Shown piece by piece: positions 1-64,000 of a stretch of 64,000 bases of DNA. The notes beneath the pieces were generated by a model. The model made no database searches and was not told where the DNA came from. It was given only the letters and a program-made list of their open reading frames with translations. Each line of letters opens with the position of its first letter. Within the stretch, counting starts at the first letter, position 1. The stretch is from Dehalococcoidia bacterium (GTDB lineage Bacteria > Chloroflexota > Dehalococcoidia > UBA6926), in contig CAXXET010000006.1 of the NCBI GenBank assembly GCA_963666115.2, positions 160,001 through 224,000 on the forward strand, written 5' to 3'. The translations under genes and the position numbers were made by a program.

Positions 1-1561
1 GGGACGGCAGTTCCGGCAAATCAAGCCGCTGCCATGCATCGAAAATCTCGTTGTCGTGCGTGAGGACGAGCGCGAGAAGGTGCTGCTCAACCACCTCGCC
101 ACGTGAGTCGTCTAATAGGCTAGAACTAATCTGGTCTGTGGGTTCTTCCGATGCTCTGGTCCTCGGCTGATCGACTCGCCCAAGTTGTCTCGGACGGCTA
201 ATTCCGGGCTGTTGCCTAATGGCGGACTCTAGTCGCTGCACGTCCATGTTCAGCGTAGTAGCCAGTTGCTCGAAGAGAGCCTGCTGCTCGTATTGGTCCC
301 GGATCTGTCGGATGATTGGAAGCAGGCGCTCAATGACTTCCTTTCTGCCTTGAGCTGAACTGGTGTCCTTGCTCTTAACTTCCGCCTGGATAAGGTAGTC
401 AAGAATGGGCGTGGCCTCTTCGACGCGCTTGCGCCAGTCATCGGGGTCGCTGCGGATGACATCGTCCGGGTCGCGGTCAGGCGGGAGGGCGATGATGCGG
501 AGCTTGGGCAGTTCTCGCCGCACGCCCATTGGAACGGCGGAGTTTGAAACGCGGACGACTTCACGCCGGAAGATGTCAAAGGCCCCCTCGAGGCTGCGGC
601 GCGTGGCCTCTTCACCGGCCGTGTCGGGATCGAGGGCGAGGGCGTAGCGGCGGGCCATGGTGCGCACGAGGCTCACCTGCCTCTCCGTGAGGGCGGTGCC
701 CATGATGGCGACGACGTTGCCGAACCCGGCCTGGTGGGCCTGCAGCGCGTCCATGTAGCCCTCGACAAGGACGACTTCGCCCCCGGCGCGGATGGCCTGC
801 TCTGCGCGGTCAAGGGCAAAAAGAGCGCCGCTCTTGTCAAAGAGCGGCGTCTGGGGCGAGTTCAGATACTTGGGCTGTGAGTCATCGAGGGCGCGGGCGC
901 CGAAACCGATGACGCGGCCTTTACCATCGCGAATCGGGAACATGAGCCGCTCACGGAAACGGTCATAGGAGCCCGGATTGCCGTCCGTGCTGTCGTCATC
1001 CCGTTCCCGTGCAATTACCAGGCCCGCCTGTAGCATCTGCTGCTCGGTGTGGCCCAGGTCGGAAAGGTGGTTCTTCAAGGCCTCCCAGCCCTTGGGCGCC
1101 ATGCCAAGCTGGAAATCCTTGACGGTCTCGTCGCTGATGCCGCGCTCTCGCAAGTAGCGCAGGGCCTGCTCGCCGGCGGGAGAGAAGGTCAGAATCCTGT
1201 GGAAGTAGTCGGCGGCGCCCTGGAGGGCCGTGTAAAGAGTATCGTTCTGCTTCCGCTGGGATTCGTCCTGTCTGCGGGTATCGGGAATGGTGACGCCCGC
1301 CCGCTCCGCCAACCGGGACAACGCCTCTGAGAAGGTCAGGTTGTCAGCGCGCTGGATGAACGAAAAGGCGTCGCCGCCCGTGCCGCACGCCCCGAAACAG
1401 TGCCATGTGCCGCGGTCCGGGAAGACGATGAACGACGGCGTCTTTTCGTTGTGGAACGGGCAGTTCGCCTTGAAATTGCGGCCCGCCTTTTGGAGCGGCA
1501 CGCGCGACTGGATAAGGTCAACGATGTCCGTGCGGGCCTTGACGTCATCGACGACAGTCAT
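1..1561 (-). CDS. dnaG: DNA primase (runs off the left edge; absent from the ORF track because no stop is in the window)
   Basis: Manual translation from ATG at 1561: MTVVDDVKARTDIVDLI...CPFHNEKTPSF...WHCFGAC (zinc finger), DRFRERLMFPI, PKYLNSPQTPLFDK, VEGYMD (TOPRIM); ATGA overlap with the dgt stop. Confidence 0.96.
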   Translation of the reverse strand, partial: MTVVDDVKARTDIVDLIQSRVPLQKAGRNFKANCPFHNEKTPSFIVFPDRGTWHCFGACGTGGDAFSFIQRADNLTFSEALSRLAERAGVTIPDTRRQDESQRKQNDTLYTALQGAADYFHRILTFSPAGEQALRYLRERGISDETVKDFQLGMAPKGWEALKNHLSDLGHTEQQMLQAGLVIARERDDDSTDGNPGSYDRFRERLMFPIRDGKGRVIGFGARALDDSQPKYLNSPQTPLFDKSGALFALDRAEQAIRAGGEVVLVEGYMDALQAHQAGFGNVVAIMGTALTERQVSLVRTMARRYALALDPDTAGEEATRRSLEGAFDIFRREVVRVSNSAVPMGVRRELPKLRIIALPPDRDPDDVIRSDPDDWRKRVEEATPILDYLIQAEVKSKDTSSAQGRKEVIERLLPIIRQIRDQYEQQALFEQLATTLNMDVQRLESAIRQQPGISRPRQLGRVDQPRTRASEEPTDQISSSLLDDSRGEVVEQHLLALVLTHDNEIFDAWQRLDLPELPS

Positions 1562-2731: not shown

Positions 2732-4201
2732 TCAGGGGCGGAGGCGGTTTTGGGGCGGGACGACGTATGGGGGGGCGGGGATGACGTGGTGGGGGGGATG
2801 CGCCCCCGCCGAACCTGTCATTCTGAGAGCAGTCGAAGAATCCCCCGCGCAGGCTGGGGCGCGGCGGGAGTCCTGGCGGAGGGTCTGGACGTGGTAGGCA
2901 AAGAAGGCTACTGCGGGGATGATGATGGAGAGCGTGGGGACCAGGGCATCGCCCAGGAAGCCTGACCCCTGGCCGAGTATCTCGCTCAGCACGGCGGCAA
3001 TGAGGGCGACGAGGGTGAAGAGCCATGTGCCGCCGAGGGCGATGAGGGCCACGTAGAGGTAGATGCGCCGGACAAGGCTGCGGGGATCGGCGTTGACGAC
3101 GCGCCACCAGAACGCGGCCCAGAGCGGCGCGCCGACGATGATCATGGTGAGGGCGACAGCAAGGACTTCGCCTTCGCCGTCTGTCGTGGTCAGCACGTCG
3201 CTATCGGTCAAGAGGGTCAGGATGGTGACGAGGAGTCCCATGAGGCCGGGGACGAGGGCGATGAGGCCGACGGCGGACATGATGTATTGGAAGGTGTGGG
3301 ACAGGGGGCGGGCGGAGTCGCGTTGTATGACAGACCAGTGGTAGGCGAGAAGGGCGAGTCCGATGAGGAGGCCGACGGCGGGGAGGATGAACTGCCGGAA
3401 GTAGATAGCGGTTGTGGCGGCATCGTCCGCGCCGACGATTTTGGCGATGACGACGTAGATGGTCGCGCTCGCGCCCCAGAGGGAGAGCAGCGCCCCGCCG
3501 ATGAAGGCGAAACCGTAGAGATAGACCTGCCGGAGGACTGATTCTTCGTCGCCGGTCACAACGGCTCGCCATTGGATTGCCCAGGCGGCGATGCCGACTA
3601 CCGCCCAGCCGGCGGCAGTACGGAGAGGGTCCTGGAAGTCTTGGGCGTCAACGAGGACGTCCGTATCAAAGACAAGGTTGTAGGCGGCATAGGCGAAACC
3701 GTAGGCGATCCAGTAGGTTCCGACGACGGCGGATGTTAGGAAGATGACGCTGAGACCGTAGACGCGCCATCGCTTGACGGTCTGGGCGCGGGAGCCGGGC
3801 TGCCCCTCCAGGTTTTCGCGCCGCCAGAGGTAGTACCAGAGACCGGCGGCGGCGATCACGCCCCCGACGTTTGCGAGCCCGTCAAAATCGCCGGCCACGT
3901 CCTGAACGACGTACAGCGCGCCGGCAAAAACATACAGGGCGGCGAGGGCCAGCGCGCCGTTGACATAAAGTTTTCGCAGCACCGACCCAGCCTCGTCGGG
4001 ATGCCGGGCGACAGCGCGGCTACCAAGGAAGTCATGTCCGAACCAGACGGGAAGGCCGACGATGATCATGGCGATCCACGTGGCCATATCGAGGGTTTCG
4101 AGACGGACGATATCGGTGGCAAGCCCGTACGCGCCCTGGAGGAGGATGGCAAAGGATACAAAGGCCGCCAGGTAAACGTATGAGCGTTGGGGGATGCTCA
4201 T
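2732..4201 (-). CDS. Multi-pass membrane protein, DUF5671-like internal repeats
   Basis: Repeated R+xYxY plus helix-pair units (RSYVYL, LRKLYV, LRQVYLY, VRRIYLY) and many hydrophobic segments. Confidence 0.65.
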   Translation of the reverse strand: MSIPQRSYVYLAAFVSFAILLQGAYGLATDIVRLETLDMATWIAMIIVGLPVWFGHDFLGSRAVARHPDEAGSVLRKLYVNGALALAALYVFAGALYVVQDVAGDFDGLANVGGVIAAAGLWYYLWRRENLEGQPGSRAQTVKRWRVYGLSVIFLTSAVVGTYWIAYGFAYAAYNLVFDTDVLVDAQDFQDPLRTAAGWAVVGIAAWAIQWRAVVTGDEESVLRQVYLYGFAFIGGALLSLWGASATIYVVIAKIVGADDAATTAIYFRQFILPAVGLLIGLALLAYHWSVIQRDSARPLSHTFQYIMSAVGLIALVPGLMGLLVTILTLLTDSDVLTTTDGEGEVLAVALTMIIVGAPLWAAFWWRVVNADPRSLVRRIYLYVALIALGGTWLFTLVALIAAVLSEILGQGSGFLGDALVPTLSIIIPAVAFFAYHVQTLRQDSRRAPACAGDSSTALRMTGSAGAHPPHHVIPAPPYVVPPQNRLRP

Positions 4202-58822: not shown

Positions 58823-60058
58823 TCAGCCGCAGATGTCCAACGCGGTGAGGGCGAGAACGCGGGCAACCGTGAGCACATTGTCGATGGGTATAGTGCGCTC
58901 CGTGTTGGACGTTGGGCCGTAGACGACGGGCACGGAGCCGCCCCGCGCGAACCAGCCGGCGTCCGTCCATGCGTATGAGCCTGGGTCCTGCGGGCCGACG
59001 CGCTCCGGCGCGGTTCCGGTGACGTCCGCATGCCGCCGCGCGACTGCCTGGGGGAGCATGTGGTCGATGGGCGTATCGATGCCGTGGCCGGGCACTTTCA
59101 TGCTGCGCCAATCGTCCGTGTAGGTGGCCGGGGGGCCGGCGATCTCGATGCTTGCGCCGGGGTTGGCGGCGCGGACGCCCTCCAGCACCTTATCGATGTC
59201 GGACTGCGTTTGCTCCCAGTCCTGTCCGGGCACGCCGCGCACTTCGATGATCATGGCGCAGTAATCGGGCACGTAGGACGCGCGCCACTTGAGGAAATCC
59301 GTGCCGACGCCGCCGTTAATCGCGCCGATGATCATGGTGGGGAGACCGGGTGTGGCGGGGTGCGGCTGAGCGGAGAACTCGACGTTGTCCAGCGCTTTGA
59401 CCACGTCCGCCATGACGTTGACGGCGTTGACGTATTCGGAGCGGTGCAGCATCCCGATCCAGGCGGAGGCGCCGGTGACGGTGATGACGTACTGGCATGC
59501 GCCGGAGTGCATGGTGCGGACATCGAGGAACGACGGCTCGCAGACTATGGTGTAGTCGCAGCCGATTCCTCGCTGTACGAGGTCGTAGACGCCGACGCCG
59601 CCCTGCAACTCGCCAACTACGCCGGTGAAGAGCAGATCACCGCGGAGCTGCGCGCCGGAGCGGTGGACGGCGACGGTGGCCGCGGCTGCTGCGGCGACAC
59701 CGGCTTTCATGTTGACGAGGCCGTGGCCGGTGAGGCGGCCGTCCTCCTCGTGGCAATCCCACGGGTCCAACGGGTAGTTGAGCGGGACGGGGTCGATGTC
59801 CAGATGGCCGTTGAGCATGAGCGACGATCCGCCGCCGCTTCCGGGGATGCGAACGATAAGGTCGGGGCGGCCGGGCTCATCGGACACGTCGATGAGTTCA
59901 GTGGAAAGGCCGCGCTCATCGAACCAAGCGGCAAGGAAGCGCATGACGTCCGTTTCGCTGCCGGAGAAGCTGCGATAGCTTTGCAGGTCTTTCATCAGTT
60001 GAACGACCTCATCACGGTTGATGCCGTCCAAGGCGTCCTGTTCGTTCACAGTCGTCAT
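58823..60058 (-). CDS. M20/ArgE-DapE family metallopeptidase or deacylase
   Basis: LMLNGHLD, GHGLVNMKAG, VVGELQGG, CEP, WTDA. Confidence 0.88.
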   Translation of the reverse strand: MTTVNEQDALDGINRDEVVQLMKDLQSYRSFSGSETDVMRFLAAWFDERGLSTELIDVSDEPGRPDLIVRIPGSGGGSSLMLNGHLDIDPVPLNYPLDPWDCHEEDGRLTGHGLVNMKAGVAAAAAATVAVHRSGAQLRGDLLFTGVVGELQGGVGVYDLVQRGIGCDYTIVCEPSFLDVRTMHSGACQYVITVTGASAWIGMLHRSEYVNAVNVMADVVKALDNVEFSAQPHPATPGLPTMIIGAINGGVGTDFLKWRASYVPDYCAMIIEVRGVPGQDWEQTQSDIDKVLEGVRAANPGASIEIAGPPATYTDDWRSMKVPGHGIDTPIDHMLPQAVARRHADVTGTAPERVGPQDPGSYAWTDAGWFARGGSVPVVYGPTSNTERTIPIDNVLTVARVLALTALDICG

Positions 60059-60103
60059 TTCACCACCCCCATGCGACTACTCAGCGTCTACTATAGTTGC
60101 GTG

Positions 60104-60796
60104 ATGGACAAACAGTCACTGATGTCCAGGGTTCTTCATTCGGGCGCGGCGGGGGCGTTTCGGATTGGGTCGCGGCTGGCGGTGCATGGGCGGGAGAATG
60201 TGCCGGCGGCGGGGCCTGTGATTGTGGCGGTGAATCACACGCACAACATAGACCCGGCGCTGATCGGGGTGATCATGCCCTGGCCGGTGCGATTCCTGGC
60301 GAAACGGGAACTCGTGGCGGAGGGCACTGCCGTTACGCGGTGGATTGTGCGGACGTGGGGACTGATTCCGATCACGCGGGGCAGGCTTGATCGGGATGCC
60401 CTGAGAACAGCCACGGACTACCTGCGCGGCGGCGGGGCAATCGGGATGTTTCCCGAGGGGACGCGGAGCAAAGACGGGCGGCTAGGCCATGCCCGGGCGG
60501 GGACAGGATTCCTGGCCGTGACGACGGGCGCGCCGGTCTTGCCTGTGGGAATCGAGGGTCTTGCGGGGCTGGGACACAACCCGGCGTTCGTTGCCCGGCG
60601 ACCGCGTTTCACGGCGCGCATCGGCACGCTGCTGGACTTCTCCGACCTGGCGGAATCCAAGGCGGACGATCGGTTTGAACGCGCGACGGACGAGATCATG
60701 CGGGCCATCGCGGGACTGTTGCCTGAGCACATGCGCGGCTACTATGAGGGCAGCGCGCGGGATACACAACACACAGATGAGCGCGCGGGGCGGTGA
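60104..60796 (+). CDS. plsC: 1-acyl-sn-glycerol-3-phosphate acyltransferase
   Basis: NHTHNIDP (HX4D), FLAKREL, FPEGTRS, PVLPVGI. Confidence 0.9.
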   Translation: MDKQSLMSRVLHSGAAGAFRIGSRLAVHGRENVPAAGPVIVAVNHTHNIDPALIGVIMPWPVRFLAKRELVAEGTAVTRWIVRTWGLIPITRGRLDRDALRTATDYLRGGGAIGMFPEGTRSKDGRLGHARAGTGFLAVTTGAPVLPVGIEGLAGLGHNPAFVARRPRFTARIGTLLDFSDLAESKADDRFERATDEIMRAIAGLLPEHMRGYYEGSARDTQHTDERAGR

Positions 60797-60805
60797 GGGA
60801 CGTCA

Positions 60806-62668
60806 ATGGGCGCCATCGTGGGCTACGTCGGGGTTCGGGAGGCCGTGCCGGTTCTCCTCCAGGCGCTTTCGCAGGTGCGGGACCAGCGCTATGACAGCGC
60901 CGGCGTGGCCGTGCGCGACCCGGACGGCTACTTCAACGCCGTGAAAACCGTTGGACGGCTCGATGTCCTGGAGGGCGCGTTGTCCGAAGAACCGCCTCTT
61001 GGGCACATGGGCCTGGGGCACACGCGGTGGCGGACGCACGGGGCGGTGACGACTGAGAACGCGCAGCCGCACCTGGACCGCCATGGCCTGGTCGCTGTCG
61101 TCACGAACGGCATCGTTGAGAACCACGTCGAGCTCAAGACGGAGCTACAGGGTCGCGGCCATCGCTTCGTTTCGACGACGGACGCGGAGGTGATTCCGCA
61201 TCTGATCGATGAGGAACTGTCGATGGCGGGCGCGGAGGCGAGTCTGGAGTCCGCCGTTCGAGCGGCGATGGCGCGGACACGGGGAACGCTGGCTGTGGTG
61301 GCGGCGCGCGCGGAGGAGCCGGAGACGATTGTGGCTGCGCGGAGCGGCTATGCGAGCCGCCTTGTGGTGGGGTGGGGGAACAATGAGGCGTTCGTGGCGA
61401 GTGAGGCGGGGCCGCTGATAAGCACGGCGGACAGGATCGCGTTCCTGGCGGCAGGGGAAATGGCGATCGTGACGCCGCGCGGGGTGGAATTCAAGACGCT
61501 CATGGCGGGCGTTCCGATTAGCAAGCGGTCCATTTCGCCGTCGGAGGAGCCGATGGCGGCGGCGCGGGGCGGCCACATGACGTTCATGATCAAGGAGATC
61601 ACGGAGCAGCCGGAGGCGTGGACGGACGCGCTGCGGGGGCGGGTGGATTTCGACACGGTCTCCCTGCGGATGGAGGAACTCGACTCCATCCGGGATGTTC
61701 TCCTAAGCGTTGAGCGGGTGGTGCTCACCGGTTCAAGTTCGTCACTGCACGCGGCAGATGCCGGCCGGCTGTATATCGAAGAGTTGACCGATCTGCCGTG
61801 CCAAGTTGCCGTCGGTTCAGAGATTGTCTTTGGGGATTTTGAGCTTGGCCCAAATACCCTGTTCATCGCAGTGACGGCATCGGGCGAGACGCTGGATACG
61901 CTGGGCGCGATGACCCTTGCCAGTGAACTGGGCTGCCCGACGATCATGGTGACGAATGACGAGGATTCGACTGGGGCGCTGATGGCCGACAGCGTTGTGC
62001 CGCTGCGCTGTGGACGCGAGGTTGGGATGGCGTCCACAAAGTCGTTCACGTCGTCCGTGCTCACGTTCTACCTGATCGCGATGCATCTTGCTCTCATCCG
62101 GGGAAATGACGGCGCAGAATCCGTGCCCGGCCGCCTGAACGAACTGAGCAAGCTGGCGGGGTACGCGAACCGGATTCTCGAAGATCCCTCTTTGCCCTCG
62201 GCGCTGGCGACCCGCTATTCAACGCGACGCGACGCGCTGTTCCTGGCGCATGGACGGTTGTACCCGGTGGCGGCAGAGGGGGCGTGGAAGCTCATCCAGC
62301 TTGGGTATATCCACGCCACGGCGTACCCGGGATCGGAGCTCATTCACGGCCCCATCGCCCTCGTGAACGGGGATGAGACGCCCGCCTTTGCCATTGCGCC
62401 GCACGGCCCGGAGTACGGGCGCATGGCGCTTTCGGTGCGGCTGCTCAAGGAAAACGGGGGCGTGGTGGCGGCGATTTTGACGGAGGGGGACGAGGAGCTT
62501 GCGCCGATTGTGGATCATCCCATCTTCATCCCGGCGGACACGCCGCAGTCGCTGCTGCCGCTGGTGACGGCGCTGCCGGTGCAGTTATTTGCGTATTACG
62601 CGGGGATTCAGAAGGGGAACGAGGTGGACAACCCGCGGAATATCCAGCGGCTGGAGGAGTTGATGTAG
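60806..62668 (+). CDS. glmS: GlmS (glutamine-fructose-6-phosphate transaminase) homologue with substituted catalytic residues
   Basis: Full Ntn plus two SIS architecture (YDSAG, GHTRW, NGIVEN, MIKEITEQP, SGET, ASTKSF, HGP, NPRN), but begins MGAIVG rather than MCGIVG. Confidence 0.85.
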   Translation: MGAIVGYVGVREAVPVLLQALSQVRDQRYDSAGVAVRDPDGYFNAVKTVGRLDVLEGALSEEPPLGHMGLGHTRWRTHGAVTTENAQPHLDRHGLVAVVTNGIVENHVELKTELQGRGHRFVSTTDAEVIPHLIDEELSMAGAEASLESAVRAAMARTRGTLAVVAARAEEPETIVAARSGYASRLVVGWGNNEAFVASEAGPLISTADRIAFLAAGEMAIVTPRGVEFKTLMAGVPISKRSISPSEEPMAAARGGHMTFMIKEITEQPEAWTDALRGRVDFDTVSLRMEELDSIRDVLLSVERVVLTGSSSSLHAADAGRLYIEELTDLPCQVAVGSEIVFGDFELGPNTLFIAVTASGETLDTLGAMTLASELGCPTIMVTNDEDSTGALMADSVVPLRCGREVGMASTKSFTSSVLTFYLIAMHLALIRGNDGAESVPGRLNELSKLAGYANRILEDPSLPSALATRYSTRRDALFLAHGRLYPVAAEGAWKLIQLGYIHATAYPGSELIHGPIALVNGDETPAFAIAPHGPEYGRMALSVRLLKENGGVVAAILTEGDEELAPIVDHPIFIPADTPQSLLPLVTALPVQLFAYYAGIQKGNEVDNPRNIQRLEELM

Positions 62669-62672
62669 GGGG

Positions 62673-64000
62673 TTAGACGAGGACTCCTCCTTCGATTAGT
62701 TCGCGGATGTCTGCTTCGGAGAGGCCCAGGAGTTCACGCATGACGTAGTCGTTGTGCTGGCCTAGGGCGGGGGCGCCCATGCGGATTGCGCCCGGGGTGT
62801 CCTCAAGCTTCGCGCCATAGGAGGCGTGGCCAATGTCGCCCCACTGCGGCTCCTCATGCGGAACGTTAACGATGTAGCCGCGCGCGTTCATCGCCGGATC
62901 GTAATACACTTCCTCAGTCGTTTGGGCCGCGACGGCGGGCACGCCCTGCTTCTGGAGGGTCAACATGACCTGGCGGGGGGTCAGGCTACTCGTCCACTCG
63001 GAGACGAGCTCATCGAGGGCCTCACGGTTTGCGAGACGGGCGTCCAACGTGGCGAAACGCGGGTCCTGCGTCCACTCCGGCGGGTCCTGGTTGGGCGGGG
63101 TCATGCCGCGCACCAGTCCCTCCCACTCTTCCTCCGTGTGGCAGGCGATGACGCACCAGCGGTCATCCCCGGCACAGGGGTAGGCGTCGTGCGGGGCGGC
63201 GTATTCGCGCTTGTTGCCCGTCGGCTCCTGGTTGACGCCGTTGATGACGTAGTCCAGAAGAGGGACGCCGAGCGCGTTGGCCTGCGCCTCCACCTGCGAG
63301 ACCTCGATGCGCTGCCCCTGCCCCGTCCTGAGCTTGTGATACAGCGCGGCTTGCAGCATGTAGCCGGAGAGGCCGCCGACGAAGAAATCGGCATAGTAGA
63401 CGCCGCAGCGCATGGATGGCGGCGACTCAGGATGCCCCCAGAGGTAGGTGACGCCGGAGGCCGTCTGCGCCTGCAGGCCGAACAGCACGTGGGAGGCGAA
63501 GGGGCCGGTGCTGCCCCAGCCGGGCATGCTCATGTAGACGATATCCGGCTTGACGGCACGGATGCCCTCATAGTCCAAGCCCCAGCGGGTAAGCGCGCCG
63601 GCGGCGTAGTTCTCAACGACGGCATCGCTTGTCGCCGCGAGCTTTCGGACAATGTTCTGCCCCTCCTCGAAGTGGAGGTCAACGGTGATGCTCATCTTGT
63701 TGCGGTTGAGTTCCGGGTGCATGGGGAGGATGCCGGTGATGCGCGACGCGGGGTCGAACAGCGAGGATTCGATCTTGATGACGTCCGCGCCGAAGTCCGC
63801 CAACTGGCGCGTTCCGTACGGGCCGACCCAGATGCGCGTGAGGTCCGTGATGCGGACTCCCTCCATGGGCAAGCGTCCGTTGCCGGGGTTGGCCATGACG
63901 GGGGCTGCCGACGCCGATTGCGCGGCGTTGTTCGCTTCGGCAAGCACCTCACCGGTGTGCTGGCCGAGCGTCGGGGCGGGGCGGCGCAGGGACCATGGGG
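62673..64000 (-). CDS. CaiB/BaiF family III CoA transferase, tandem two-domain protein (5' end beyond the window)
   Basis: GVRITDLT, FGADVIKIES, NRNKMS, VENY, APALGQHN; the frame stays open to the edge, where RRPAPTLGQHTGEVL is the end of a preceding CaiB domain. Confidence 0.9.
   Translation of the reverse strand, partial: PWSLRRPAPTLGQHTGEVLAEANNAAQSASAAPVMANPGNGRLPMEGVRITDLTRIWVGPYGTRQLADFGADVIKIESSLFDPASRITGILPMHPELNRNKMSITVDLHFEEGQNIVRKLAATSDAVVENYAAGALTRWGLDYEGIRAVKPDIVYMSMPGWGSTGPFASHVLFGLQAQTASGVTYLWGHPESPPSMRCGVYYADFFVGGLSGYMLQAALYHKLRTGQGQRIEVSQVEAQANALGVPLLDYVINGVNQEPTGNKREYAAPHDAYPCAGDDRWCVIACHTEEEWEGLVRGMTPPNQDPPEWTQDPRFATLDARLANREALDELVSEWTSSLTPRQVMLTLQKQGVPAVAAQTTEEVYYDPAMNARGYIVNVPHEEPQWGDIGHASYGAKLEDTPGAIRMGAPALGQHNDYVMRELLGLSEADIRELIEGGVLV

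Follow-up and report, generated by a model that had tools for sequence, protein, structure and literature searches.

The window, the whole stretch of 64,000 nucleotides analysed here, encodes a full-length paralogue of the GlcN6P synthase GlmS in which three catalytic residues have been replaced. Judged from its sequence, the paralogue has very probably lost GlmS activity, and there is good support for selection acting on a function other than GlcN6P synthesis. The protein is best explained as a pseudoenzyme that binds ligands and serves in sensing or regulation, a reading that was given a probability of roughly 0.6.

Gene and locus

The coding sequence (P0001, 60806..62668, +) starts with ATG and specifies 620 aa plus stop; an orthologue occurs in all 22 species of the window's genus. 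The original prediction of an unbroken 620-codon frame placed 9 nt downstream of plsC was confirmed: the frame contains zero internal stops, and the TGA stop of plsC ends at 60796. The upstream gene (60104..60796, +; candidate starts ATG 60104 or GTG 60101) encodes a PlsC-type acyltransferase (PF01553). The 9 nt spacer (60797..60805, +) is accompanied by a purine-rich SD-like GAGGGA that overlaps the plsC stop. plsC lies directly before the paralogue in 22/22 species of the genus, the gap being 9 nt in 19/22, 10 nt in two more and 42 nt in the last, and the two genes are probably co-transcribed. An in-frame TGA is found 3 codons 5' of the ATG, and an N-terminal extension supplying a cysteine was therefore excluded. 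Fusion of PlsC to the paralogue by read-through of the TGA was rejected as a mechanism because the shared frame, present in 20/22 species (not G021 or G009), is not conserved in all of them. Zero Rfam matches to the glmS ribozyme were obtained at either glmS copy, the sole Rfam match being a tRNA. For positions 60131-62668, the DNA datasets listed, each with a share of at most 0.34, were metagenomes of marine, sponge and coral origin; no RNA datasets were listed.

Family assignment

Pfam domains GATase_6, GATase_7 and SIS (two stretches) were identified in the paralogue. It scored 482.7 bits against NCBIfam TIGR01135 (glmS; cut-off 418.05) and 499 bits against NF001484 (cut-off 381), and its full-length score, Ntn-GATase domain and two SIS domains place it in the GlmS family by homology. 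Architecture (two domains) and length are those of GlmS/GFAT (EC 2.6.1.16; TIGR01135; 1jxa, 2j6h, 4amv); sequence identity is 33-34% with E. coli GlmS and 42-44% with the canonical GlmS of this genome. The Ntn-glutaminase-like domain comprises residues 1-245 (60806..61540, +), and the isomerase-like domain, made of two SIS subdomains and a C-terminal tail, residues 250-620 (61553..62665, +). SIS domains elsewhere serve as non-catalytic sensors. The sugar-phosphate-binding SIS fold is common to the paralogue, NagB-II, GlmD and the RpiR/MurR sensor domains; those deaminases and sensors lack the glutaminase domain, whereas the paralogue lacks a DNA-binding domain. Scores for SIS-type GlcN6P deaminases were low (NagB-II, 72.9 against 430 bits; GlmD, 55.2 against 580).

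Catalytic and ligand-binding residues

Residues were compared through a phmmer alignment to E. coli GlmS (4amv, 1jxa; E 2e-103). The consulted part of PMC9272926 ascribes catalytic roles to Cys1, Glu488, His504 and Lys603. Lys603, in the C-terminal lid, forms the Schiff base with Fru6P, Glu488 acts as base, and His504 opens the ring across the dimer (in part PMC9272926). The alignment bore out the predicted changes Cys1 to Gly, Glu488 to Gln and Lys603 to Arg, together with the motif changes EGALKLKE to EGAWKLIQ (Leu484 is also replaced, by Trp) and PRNLAKSVTVE to the remodelled tail PRNIQRLEELM. His504 is kept as predicted and is invariant in 22/22 orthologues. The change of YRGYDS to DQRYDS was likewise found, Arg26 being replaced by Gln and Gly27 by Arg. 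Two further motif claims stood in part. HNG to TNG is a difference from E. coli only, since the genome's own working GlmS has QNG. In SQSGET to TASGET the first letter differs from E. coli only (the genome's canonical GlmS has TQSGET); the change of Gln348 to Ala is real but occurs in 18/22 orthologues. Gln348 is a phosphate-site residue, and the ligand may therefore not be Fru6P or GlcN6P.

The three central replacements had been expected to be conserved among orthologues, and they are fixed. Position 1 is Gly in 22/22, so that no Cys directly follows the Met; position 488 is Gln in 22/22 paralogues, where 21/21 canonical copies from this genus have Glu; position 603 is Arg in 22/22, within a tail of the form R-[LI]-E-[ED]-[FL]-x. 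His86 is Gln in 22/22 and Arg26 is Gln in 20/22. Residues that bind glutamine and sugar phosphate are kept. Invariant in 22/22 are Arg73, Trp74, His77, Asn98, Gly99 and Asp123 in the glutaminase-like part, and Ser303, Ser349, Thr352, Ser401, Thr402, Lys403, Lys485, His504, Arg599 and Asn600 in the isomerase-like part; the list of substrate-binding residues follows PMC9272926 in part.

Within the paralogue clade 336/622 alignment columns (54%) are invariant, and at 72 columns each group, paralogue and canonical, is fixed for a different residue. Among these 72, the paralogue has, in its own numbering, new His at positions 93, 107, 257 and 571, new Ser at 310 and 311, Trp494 and an acidic C-tail (R-L/I-E-E/D). 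Among 271 GlmS homologues compared, 253 have the full catalytic pattern; the triple replacement was found only in 10, all of the paralogue clade, and 253/261 homologues outside that clade retain the full pattern. Given this comparison, the triple replacement is more than chance.

Canonical copy, distribution and selection

A canonical glmS was found elsewhere in the genome, as the original prediction had anticipated (G000:C4:213783-215621; 692 bits to TIGR01135; motifs MCGIMG...EGALKLKE...PRNLAKSVTVE). A canonical glmS was likewise recovered from each of the 22 species of the genus; the G001 copy, at a contig end, is partial. None of the 22 paralogue frames is interrupted or shortened, identities being 73-95%, and the paralogue was found in 0/8 other genomes of the order. 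Additional GlmS-like fragments in G024 and G037 begin with MCGI and were set aside as canonical genes cut by contig ends.

Median dN/dS (NG86) was 0.056 for the paralogue and 0.063 for canonical GlmS, calculated over the 162/210 genome pairs with dS of 0.05-1.5. By domain, the values were 0.066 (GATase-like) and 0.051 (isomerase-like) in the paralogue, and 0.060 and 0.067 in canonical GlmS. The ratio, about 0.06, is thus as low as the one that these genome pairs give for the working enzyme, and together with the open frames and fixed replacements it upholds the claim of selection rather than decay. GC and GC3 were 65.1% and 80.6% in the paralogue, 66.4% and 83.1% in the canonical copy. The paralogue combines the marks of a pseudoenzyme: key catalytic residues are absent, a canonical paralogue is present in the same genome, and selection is purifying.

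Predicted structure and dimer interface

The AF2 model of the paralogue had a pLDDT of 94 and a pTM of 0.92. Its isomerase domain superposed on GlmS/GFAT isomerase-domain structures with TM 0.90-0.95 (target-normalised). The best full-length match was 3OOJ, the C1A mutant of E. coli GlmS (chains A, C and E, TM 0.80-0.83), with 0.56 for 2j6h and 1jxa. In the AlphaFold models, the domains of the paralogue are arranged as in 3OOJ and those of the canonical copy as in 2J6H/1JXA. Like the paralogue, the 3OOJ protein lacks Cys1; it is, however, an engineered laboratory variant of an active enzyme and still has Glu488 and Lys603. By its title, as cited in the consulted part of PMC5024086, Mouilleron et al. 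2012 connects the 3OOJ crystal form with an inactive hexameric state that equilibrates with the active dimer, a meaning that is taken from the PDB title and from that cited title. In sum, the paralogue differs from GlmS/GFAT in the loss of Cys1, Glu488 and Lys603, in the remodelled lid and in a predicted domain arrangement that is not of the active type.

A heterodimer of the paralogue and canonical GlmS (isomerase domains) was modelled with an ipSAE of 0.92, against 0.00 for the best of 3 controls, a pass that likeness to solved GlmS dimers predicts. The ipSAE mark is reached by 116/157 solved complexes and 2/215 mismatched pairs. Contacts agreed by at least 91% between runs, and partner pLDDT was at least 91. 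The modelling used its own alignments, and the score may reflect memory of solved GlmS homodimers. Predicted interface positions are invariant in the clade more often than the rest of the domain (41/58 vs 156/311, Fisher p 0.004). The paralogue shares the canonical residue at 24/58 interface positions and at 130/311 positions elsewhere (p = 1), and its predicted interface carries many charge changes relative to canonical GlmS. Since the interface is no more GlmS-like than the rest and its charges have changed, there is no sign of kept compatibility with GlmS.

Origin of the paralogue

In two outgroup families (f2, f3) canonical glmS lies directly after plsC, and in genera g1 and g3 it lies near glmU. 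In the window's genus the working glmS is near glmU, and the paralogue occupies the plsC-linked place used by working glmS in the two outgroup families. Within 1.5 kb, comparison of the canonical glmS surroundings in g1 with those in g2/g3 revealed no shared synteny. In the tree, which came from a quick search and has a long stem branch, the paralogues formed one clade (SH-aLRT 100, stem 1.04) nested within the GlmS clade of the order (99 and 97, both starred). Genus-level duplication was not rejected by the AU test (p 0.053). The paralogue would be the descendant of the order's ancestral plsC-linked glmS. A second copy adjoining glmU may have taken over catalysis, after which the original copy would have changed fast (stem of about 1 substitution per site) and later been frozen by purifying selection.

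A lone metagenome protein, P0011 (47% identical; sister to the paralogue clade with SH-aLRT 89), shows only the change of Cys1 to Gly. It was rejected as an evolutionary intermediate: just one sequence, from one contig, represents it, and a one-base error or a variant is possible. Its contig was not found among metagenome contigs (best of 80 loci, 53% identical), Cys is present in 74/74 of its uncut relatives there, and no P0011-like gene was detected in 30 genomes of the order (best match 61%).

Proposed function and alternative explanations

The paralogue would be a full-length, well-folded protein incapable of the GlmS reaction, because it lacks the N-terminal nucleophile, the Glu488 base and the Schiff-base Lys603. 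Both ligand pockets appear to be retained, and ligand binding with a regulatory role is, on this residue pattern, the more probable outcome. A hexose-6-phosphate (Fru6P or GlcN6P) and glutamine or glutamate would most likely be bound without turnover. Occupancy of the pockets would be relayed through protein contacts, making the protein, putatively expressed jointly with plsC, a sensor or regulatory subunit for the supply of amino sugars and envelope precursors.

Canonical GlmS is a possible partner, though judged less likely than not. A still more tentative proposal is a prozyme of the hexosamine pathway. The dead protomer would co-assemble with working GlmS and lend it His504 across the interface, giving a mixed dimer with one live site; held in the 3OOJ-like inactive arrangement, it would let occupancy by glutamine and GlcN6P govern the activity of GlmS or its oligomeric state, and the protein would have arisen in place from the ancestral plsC-linked glmS once a glmU-adjoining duplicate had assumed catalysis. 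Trypanosomatid prozymes are of this dead-paralogue type. Pseudo-amidotransferases and prozymes resemble the paralogue in being dead enzyme copies that are kept by selection and thought to act by binding; they belong to another amidotransferase class and other hosts, whereas the paralogue is bacterial and GlmS-derived. In the consulted part of PMC7605207, a herpesvirus pseudo-GAT cooperates with cellular GAT. No description of a GlmS-derived pseudoenzyme was found in full-text literature searches.

A neofunctionalised enzyme, using the retained sugar-phosphate and amino-acid pockets and the newly fixed residues for a different reaction on a related substrate, is unlikely. The columns fixed differently in the two groups, with their four new histidines, speak for it; a long stem that gives way to strong constraint is what any new function would leave, whether or not it is catalytic. 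Against it, the chain begins Gly-Ala once Met is removed and so has no N-terminal nucleophile, and Glu to Gln and Lys to Arg are minimal isosteric changes that typically abolish chemistry and keep binding. Besides GlmS, no family score came near its cut-off.

Less likely again is a structural partner that senses nothing, a pure scaffold for the co-transcribed PlsC or another envelope enzyme in which ligand binding is irrelevant. Such a role would suit the tight plsC coupling in all 22 species and a predicted dimer interface that is remodelled yet constrained. A scaffold would, however, have no need of the ligand-contacting residues of both pockets, which are invariant in 22/22 when 54% of all columns are. 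The plsC-glmS linkage is moreover older than the catalytic loss, as a working glmS comes after plsC in the outgroups, and therefore need not mean physical partnership.

That the paralogue is still a GlcN6P synthase, for instance an ammonia-dependent one working through substitute residues, is very improbable, despite a score above the curated glmS cut-off and the retention of His504 and the binding residues. Three of the four catalytic residues named in the consulted part of PMC9272926 are replaced in every species of the genus, nearly all homologues outside the clade (253/261) retain them, each species has a canonical copy, and the predicted inter-domain arrangement is unlike that of the active enzyme. 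A decaying duplicate or an assembly or sequencing artefact, which could be imagined because Cys to Gly is a single-base change and the only one in P0011, has a negligible chance in view of the 22 open frames at 73-95% identity, the dN/dS of about 0.06 in both domains, and GC and GC3 resembling those of the canonical copy.

Significance

GlmS is the committed, heavily regulated step of amino-sugar synthesis. Bacteria are known to control it through RNAs (the glmS ribozyme, GlmY/GlmZ) or through unrelated proteins, such as GlmR. EIIANtr, also one of these proteins, binds the GlmS dimer in Salmonella (PMC5024086, consulted in part). MurA is apparently absent from the lineage (best match 67 bits against a cut-off of 392.7), and the regulated amino-sugar demand is therefore probably not for peptidoglycan. 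As the paralogue lies above the curated glmS cut-off, annotation based on TIGR01135 would probably call it a working GlmS, and such misnaming would mislead pathway reconstructions and copy-number counts. A dead GlmS copy under selection of enzyme strength would add a new type of component to the amino-sugar pathway, and would provide a clean natural case of an enzyme that became a binding protein while keeping the two pockets of its ancestor.

Sequence comparison and distribution

The open reading frame at 60806..62668 (+ strand; ATG start, 620 codons, no break in frame), referred to here as the paralogue, was aligned by phmmer to the E. coli GlmS structures 4amv and 1jxa (E about 2e-103), and residues are numbered as in E. 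coli unless stated. Pfam returned GATase_6, GATase_7 and two stretches of SIS, and the NCBIfam glmS equivalog TIGR01135 scored 482.7 bits (cut-off 418.05), by which the product is judged a full-length GlmS family member. Gly stands at the Cys1 position (MGAIVG), Gln and Arg replace Arg26 and Gly27, Gln replaces Glu488 (EGAWKLIQ), and Arg replaces Lys603 in a remodelled tail (PRNIQRLEELM); His504 is retained. A hidden N-terminal cysteine was ruled out because an in-frame stop lies 3 codons 5' of the ATG. The original prediction had called the changes at Cys1, Glu488, Lys603 and YRGYDS, the retention of His504 and an unbroken 620-codon frame 9 nt past plsC, all of which were borne out. Its changes of HNG to TNG and of Ser347 to Thr hold against E. 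coli only, the genome's own GlmS having QNG and TQSGET, and its other SQSGET change (Gln348 to Ala) is carried by only 18 of 22 orthologues.

A canonical glmS was found elsewhere in the genome (2.07 Mb, 9 contigs, 100% complete), at C4:213783-215621 (692 bits; MCGIMG...EGALKLKE...PRNLAKSVTVE). Forty-one related genomes were searched. The paralogue was present and open in all 22 species of the genus (73-95% identical) and in 0/19 genomes outside it. Canonical glmS was likewise found in 22/22 species (42-44% identity to the paralogue), one copy (G001) being partial at a contig end. An order-wide search of 30 genomes (22 of the genus, three each of genera g2 and g3, and one each of the outgroup families f2 and f3) again confined the paralogue to the genus; within g2, a genome that is 69% complete returned no GlmS match whatever. 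Among 1.84 billion library representatives, the paralogues formed a single 50%-identity cluster, with nearest matches beyond it at ≤40% identity.

Residue conservation and selection

According to a review (PMC9272926), Cys1 is the sole catalytic residue of the glutaminase domain, and Glu488, His504 and Lys603 serve the isomerase step. Twenty-two paralogues were compared with 21 canonical copies. Cys1 to Gly, His86 to Gln, Leu484 to Trp, Glu488 to Gln, Lys603 to Arg and Val605 to Glu were found in every paralogue, so that orthologues were seen to keep the three central substitutions; Lys487 to Ile occurred in 21/22 and Arg26 to Gln in 20/22. Roles of further residues were placed by motif on the phmmer alignment. 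Asp29, Ser30, Arg73, Trp74, His77, Asn98, Gly99 and Asp123, which we take from E. coli structures to form the glutamine site, were invariant (22/22). So were Ser303, Ser349, Thr352, Ser401, Thr402, Lys403, Lys485, His493, His504, Arg599 and Asn600, presumably the sugar-phosphate site on the same grounds. Over the full length, just 336 of 622 alignment columns were invariant in the clade. At 72 columns each group was fixed, but for a different residue. The paralogue carries near-isosteric inert residues (Glu to Gln, Lys to Arg) in place of the chemistry-bearing ones, with the binding residues held, as is expected of a ligand-binding pseudoenzyme. A new enzymatic activity, a rival reading, is judged improbable.

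The full pattern (Cys1/Arg26/His86/Asn98/Asp123/Glu488/His504/Lys603) was present in 253 of 271 GlmS homologues compared; the ten clade members among them read Gly(Ala)/Gln/Gln/Asn/Asp/Gln/His/Arg. Two homologues unrelated to the clade were also noted: P0182 starts MPGIVG and has Asn98 to Gly and Glu488 to Val, and P0161 starts MMGGIIG with the rest of the pattern intact. Inactive or partly inactive copies of GlmS may have more than one origin.

Pairwise NG86 dN/dS was calculated on codon alignments from 21 genomes with both copies full. Median values were 0.056 for the paralogue and 0.063 for the canonical copy (162 of 210 pairs, dS 0.05 to 1.5), or 0.060 and 0.063 over all 210 pairs. By domain, the paralogue and canonical values were 0.066 and 0.060 (glutaminase-like) and 0.051 and 0.067 (isomerase-like). 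Decay was excluded because both halves are constrained and GC and GC3 are similar to those of the canonical copy.

Structure modelling

AlphaFold2 was run on the paralogue with a 100-row alignment (89 rows canonical), and one best model was kept per protein. The model had pLDDT 94 and pTM 0.92, with values below 50 in the last four residues only; canonical GlmS of the genome, modelled as a control, had pLDDT 90.3. In Foldseek the nearest match of the whole paralogue model was 3OOJ (TM 0.80-0.83 for its chains A, C and E), the C1A mutant of E. coli GlmS crystallised with Glc6P and Glu; TM was just 0.56 against the active-state entries 2j6h and 1jxa. For the canonical model, TM was 0.91-0.93 against 2j6h, 1jxa and human GFAT-1, falling to 0.55 against the same 3OOJ chains. 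These opposite preferences are a lead that the paralogue's domains are placed as in the mutant crystal form, unlike in the active enzyme. The link between that form and an inactive hexamer comes only from a paper title, Mouilleron et al. (2012), in the reference list of PMC5024086.

A heterodimer was modelled from the isomerase domains of canonical GlmS (residues 245-614) and the paralogue (its residues 250-620). It reached ipSAE 0.92 (best of three controls, 0.00), with at least 91% contact agreement between runs and partner pLDDT of at least 91. This mark is attained by 116/157 solved complexes and 2/215 mismatched pairs, counts that are a rough guide here since the alignments were self-made. 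As GlmS homodimers are solved, the pass shows likeness to them and is not evidence of binding between paralogue and GlmS. In the model, paralogue His514, the equivalent of E. coli His504, contacts residues 306-307 of canonical GlmS, beside the sugar-phosphate loop, so a mixed dimer could have one complete active site. The paralogue matches canonical GlmS at 24/58 predicted interface positions versus 130/311 elsewhere (p = 1), with many charge changes at the interface. Within the clade 41/58 interface positions are invariant versus 156/311 elsewhere (p = 0.004). The predicted interface appears functional and remodelled; self-association would account for this no less well than a mixed dimer.

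Genomic context and origin

The paralogue directly follows a PlsC-type acyltransferase gene (PF01553, + strand), whose TGA ends at 60796; the 9 nt spacer holds an SD-like GAGGGA. This adjacency was found in 22/22 species, with 9 nt between the genes in 19 of them, 10 nt in two and 42 nt in one, and the two genes are probably co-expressed. The pair is flanked by an M20-family peptidase gene (58823-60058, - strand) in 20/22 species and a family-III CoA-transferase gene (62673-63947, - strand) in 19/22. The CoA-transferase stop is 4 nt from the paralogue stop, convergent. In 20/22 species plsC and the paralogue share a frame (60104-62668 in the window), split by TGA and three codons (G-T-S); read-through would yield a fusion protein, and the relation does not hold in G021 and G009. 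A 588-aa frame at 59030-60796 (+) was rejected as a gene, being mostly antisense to the peptidase gene with real plsC as its last ~230 codons; such long spurious frames are a high-GC artefact.

In the tree (48 rows, IQ-TREE quick, LG+C20) the paralogues formed one clade (support 100, stem 1.04 substitutions per site) inside the order's GlmS clade (branches 99 and 97). Their internal branching broadly mirrors that of the canonical copies, suggesting that the two were inherited together vertically. A topology uniting the genus's paralogues and canonical copies was not rejected by the AU test (delta lnL 11.3, p 0.053), so the duplication may date to the genus or to the family. A working glmS follows plsC in both outgroup families, with gaps of about 70 nt (G026) and about 390 nt (G025); g2 and g3 have nothing GlmS-like after plsC. 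The working glmS of the genus is near glmU (0.9 kb in G009, 4.2 kb in the window's genome), as in sister genus g3 (2.2 kb). On the simplest reading, the pseudoenzyme would be the positional descendant of an ancestral plsC-linked glmS; a second copy near glmU would have taken over catalysis, and the old copy would have been lost in sister genera and kept, altered, here.

At the canonical locus (L001) a tRNA-Gly(TCC) gene (3349-3423, - strand) lies about 7 nt past the glmS stop on the opposite strand. Just upstream of glmS (L001:122-1352) the minus-strand ORFs 897..1352 (DPPF) and 122..922 (FCGCGT) overlap in different frames and resemble, respectively, the N-terminal and C-terminal parts of a single DNA methyltransferase, either a frameshifted gene or a sequencing error; they are located between glmU and glmS and may account for the 4.2 kb gap, compared with 0.9 kb in G009. 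In this genome glmU scored 398 bits, glmM gave a weak match (47.5 bits), no murA reached cut-off (best 67 bits versus 392.7, probably an aroA-type relative), and neither copy gave a glmS ribozyme match. From this survey peptidoglycan is probably not what the amino-sugar pathway supplies. Peptidoglycan may be missing from the lineage, and a different phosphohexosamine mutase may be in use.

Interpretation

No description of a GlmS pseudoenzyme or dead paralogue was found in full-text searches outside subscription journals. These did return viral pseudo-amidotransferases (PMC7605207), proteins that regulate GlmS, among them EIIANtr (PMC5024086), and multiple glmS copies in Burkholderia. Fixed replacements, held binding residues and low dN/dS support the selected non-catalytic role originally proposed over decay. 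Judged from sequence, the paralogue appears to be a conserved, selected, catalytically disabled GlmS with intact predicted ligand pockets, and the probability that it lacks GlmS activity is put at about 0.9. Its function is probably that of a sensor or regulator; a ligand-binding regulatory role is favoured with moderate confidence, and canonical GlmS is a doubtful candidate for its partner. The protein would be a pseudoenzyme whose parent enzyme is very well known, and it is confined to one uncultured genus.
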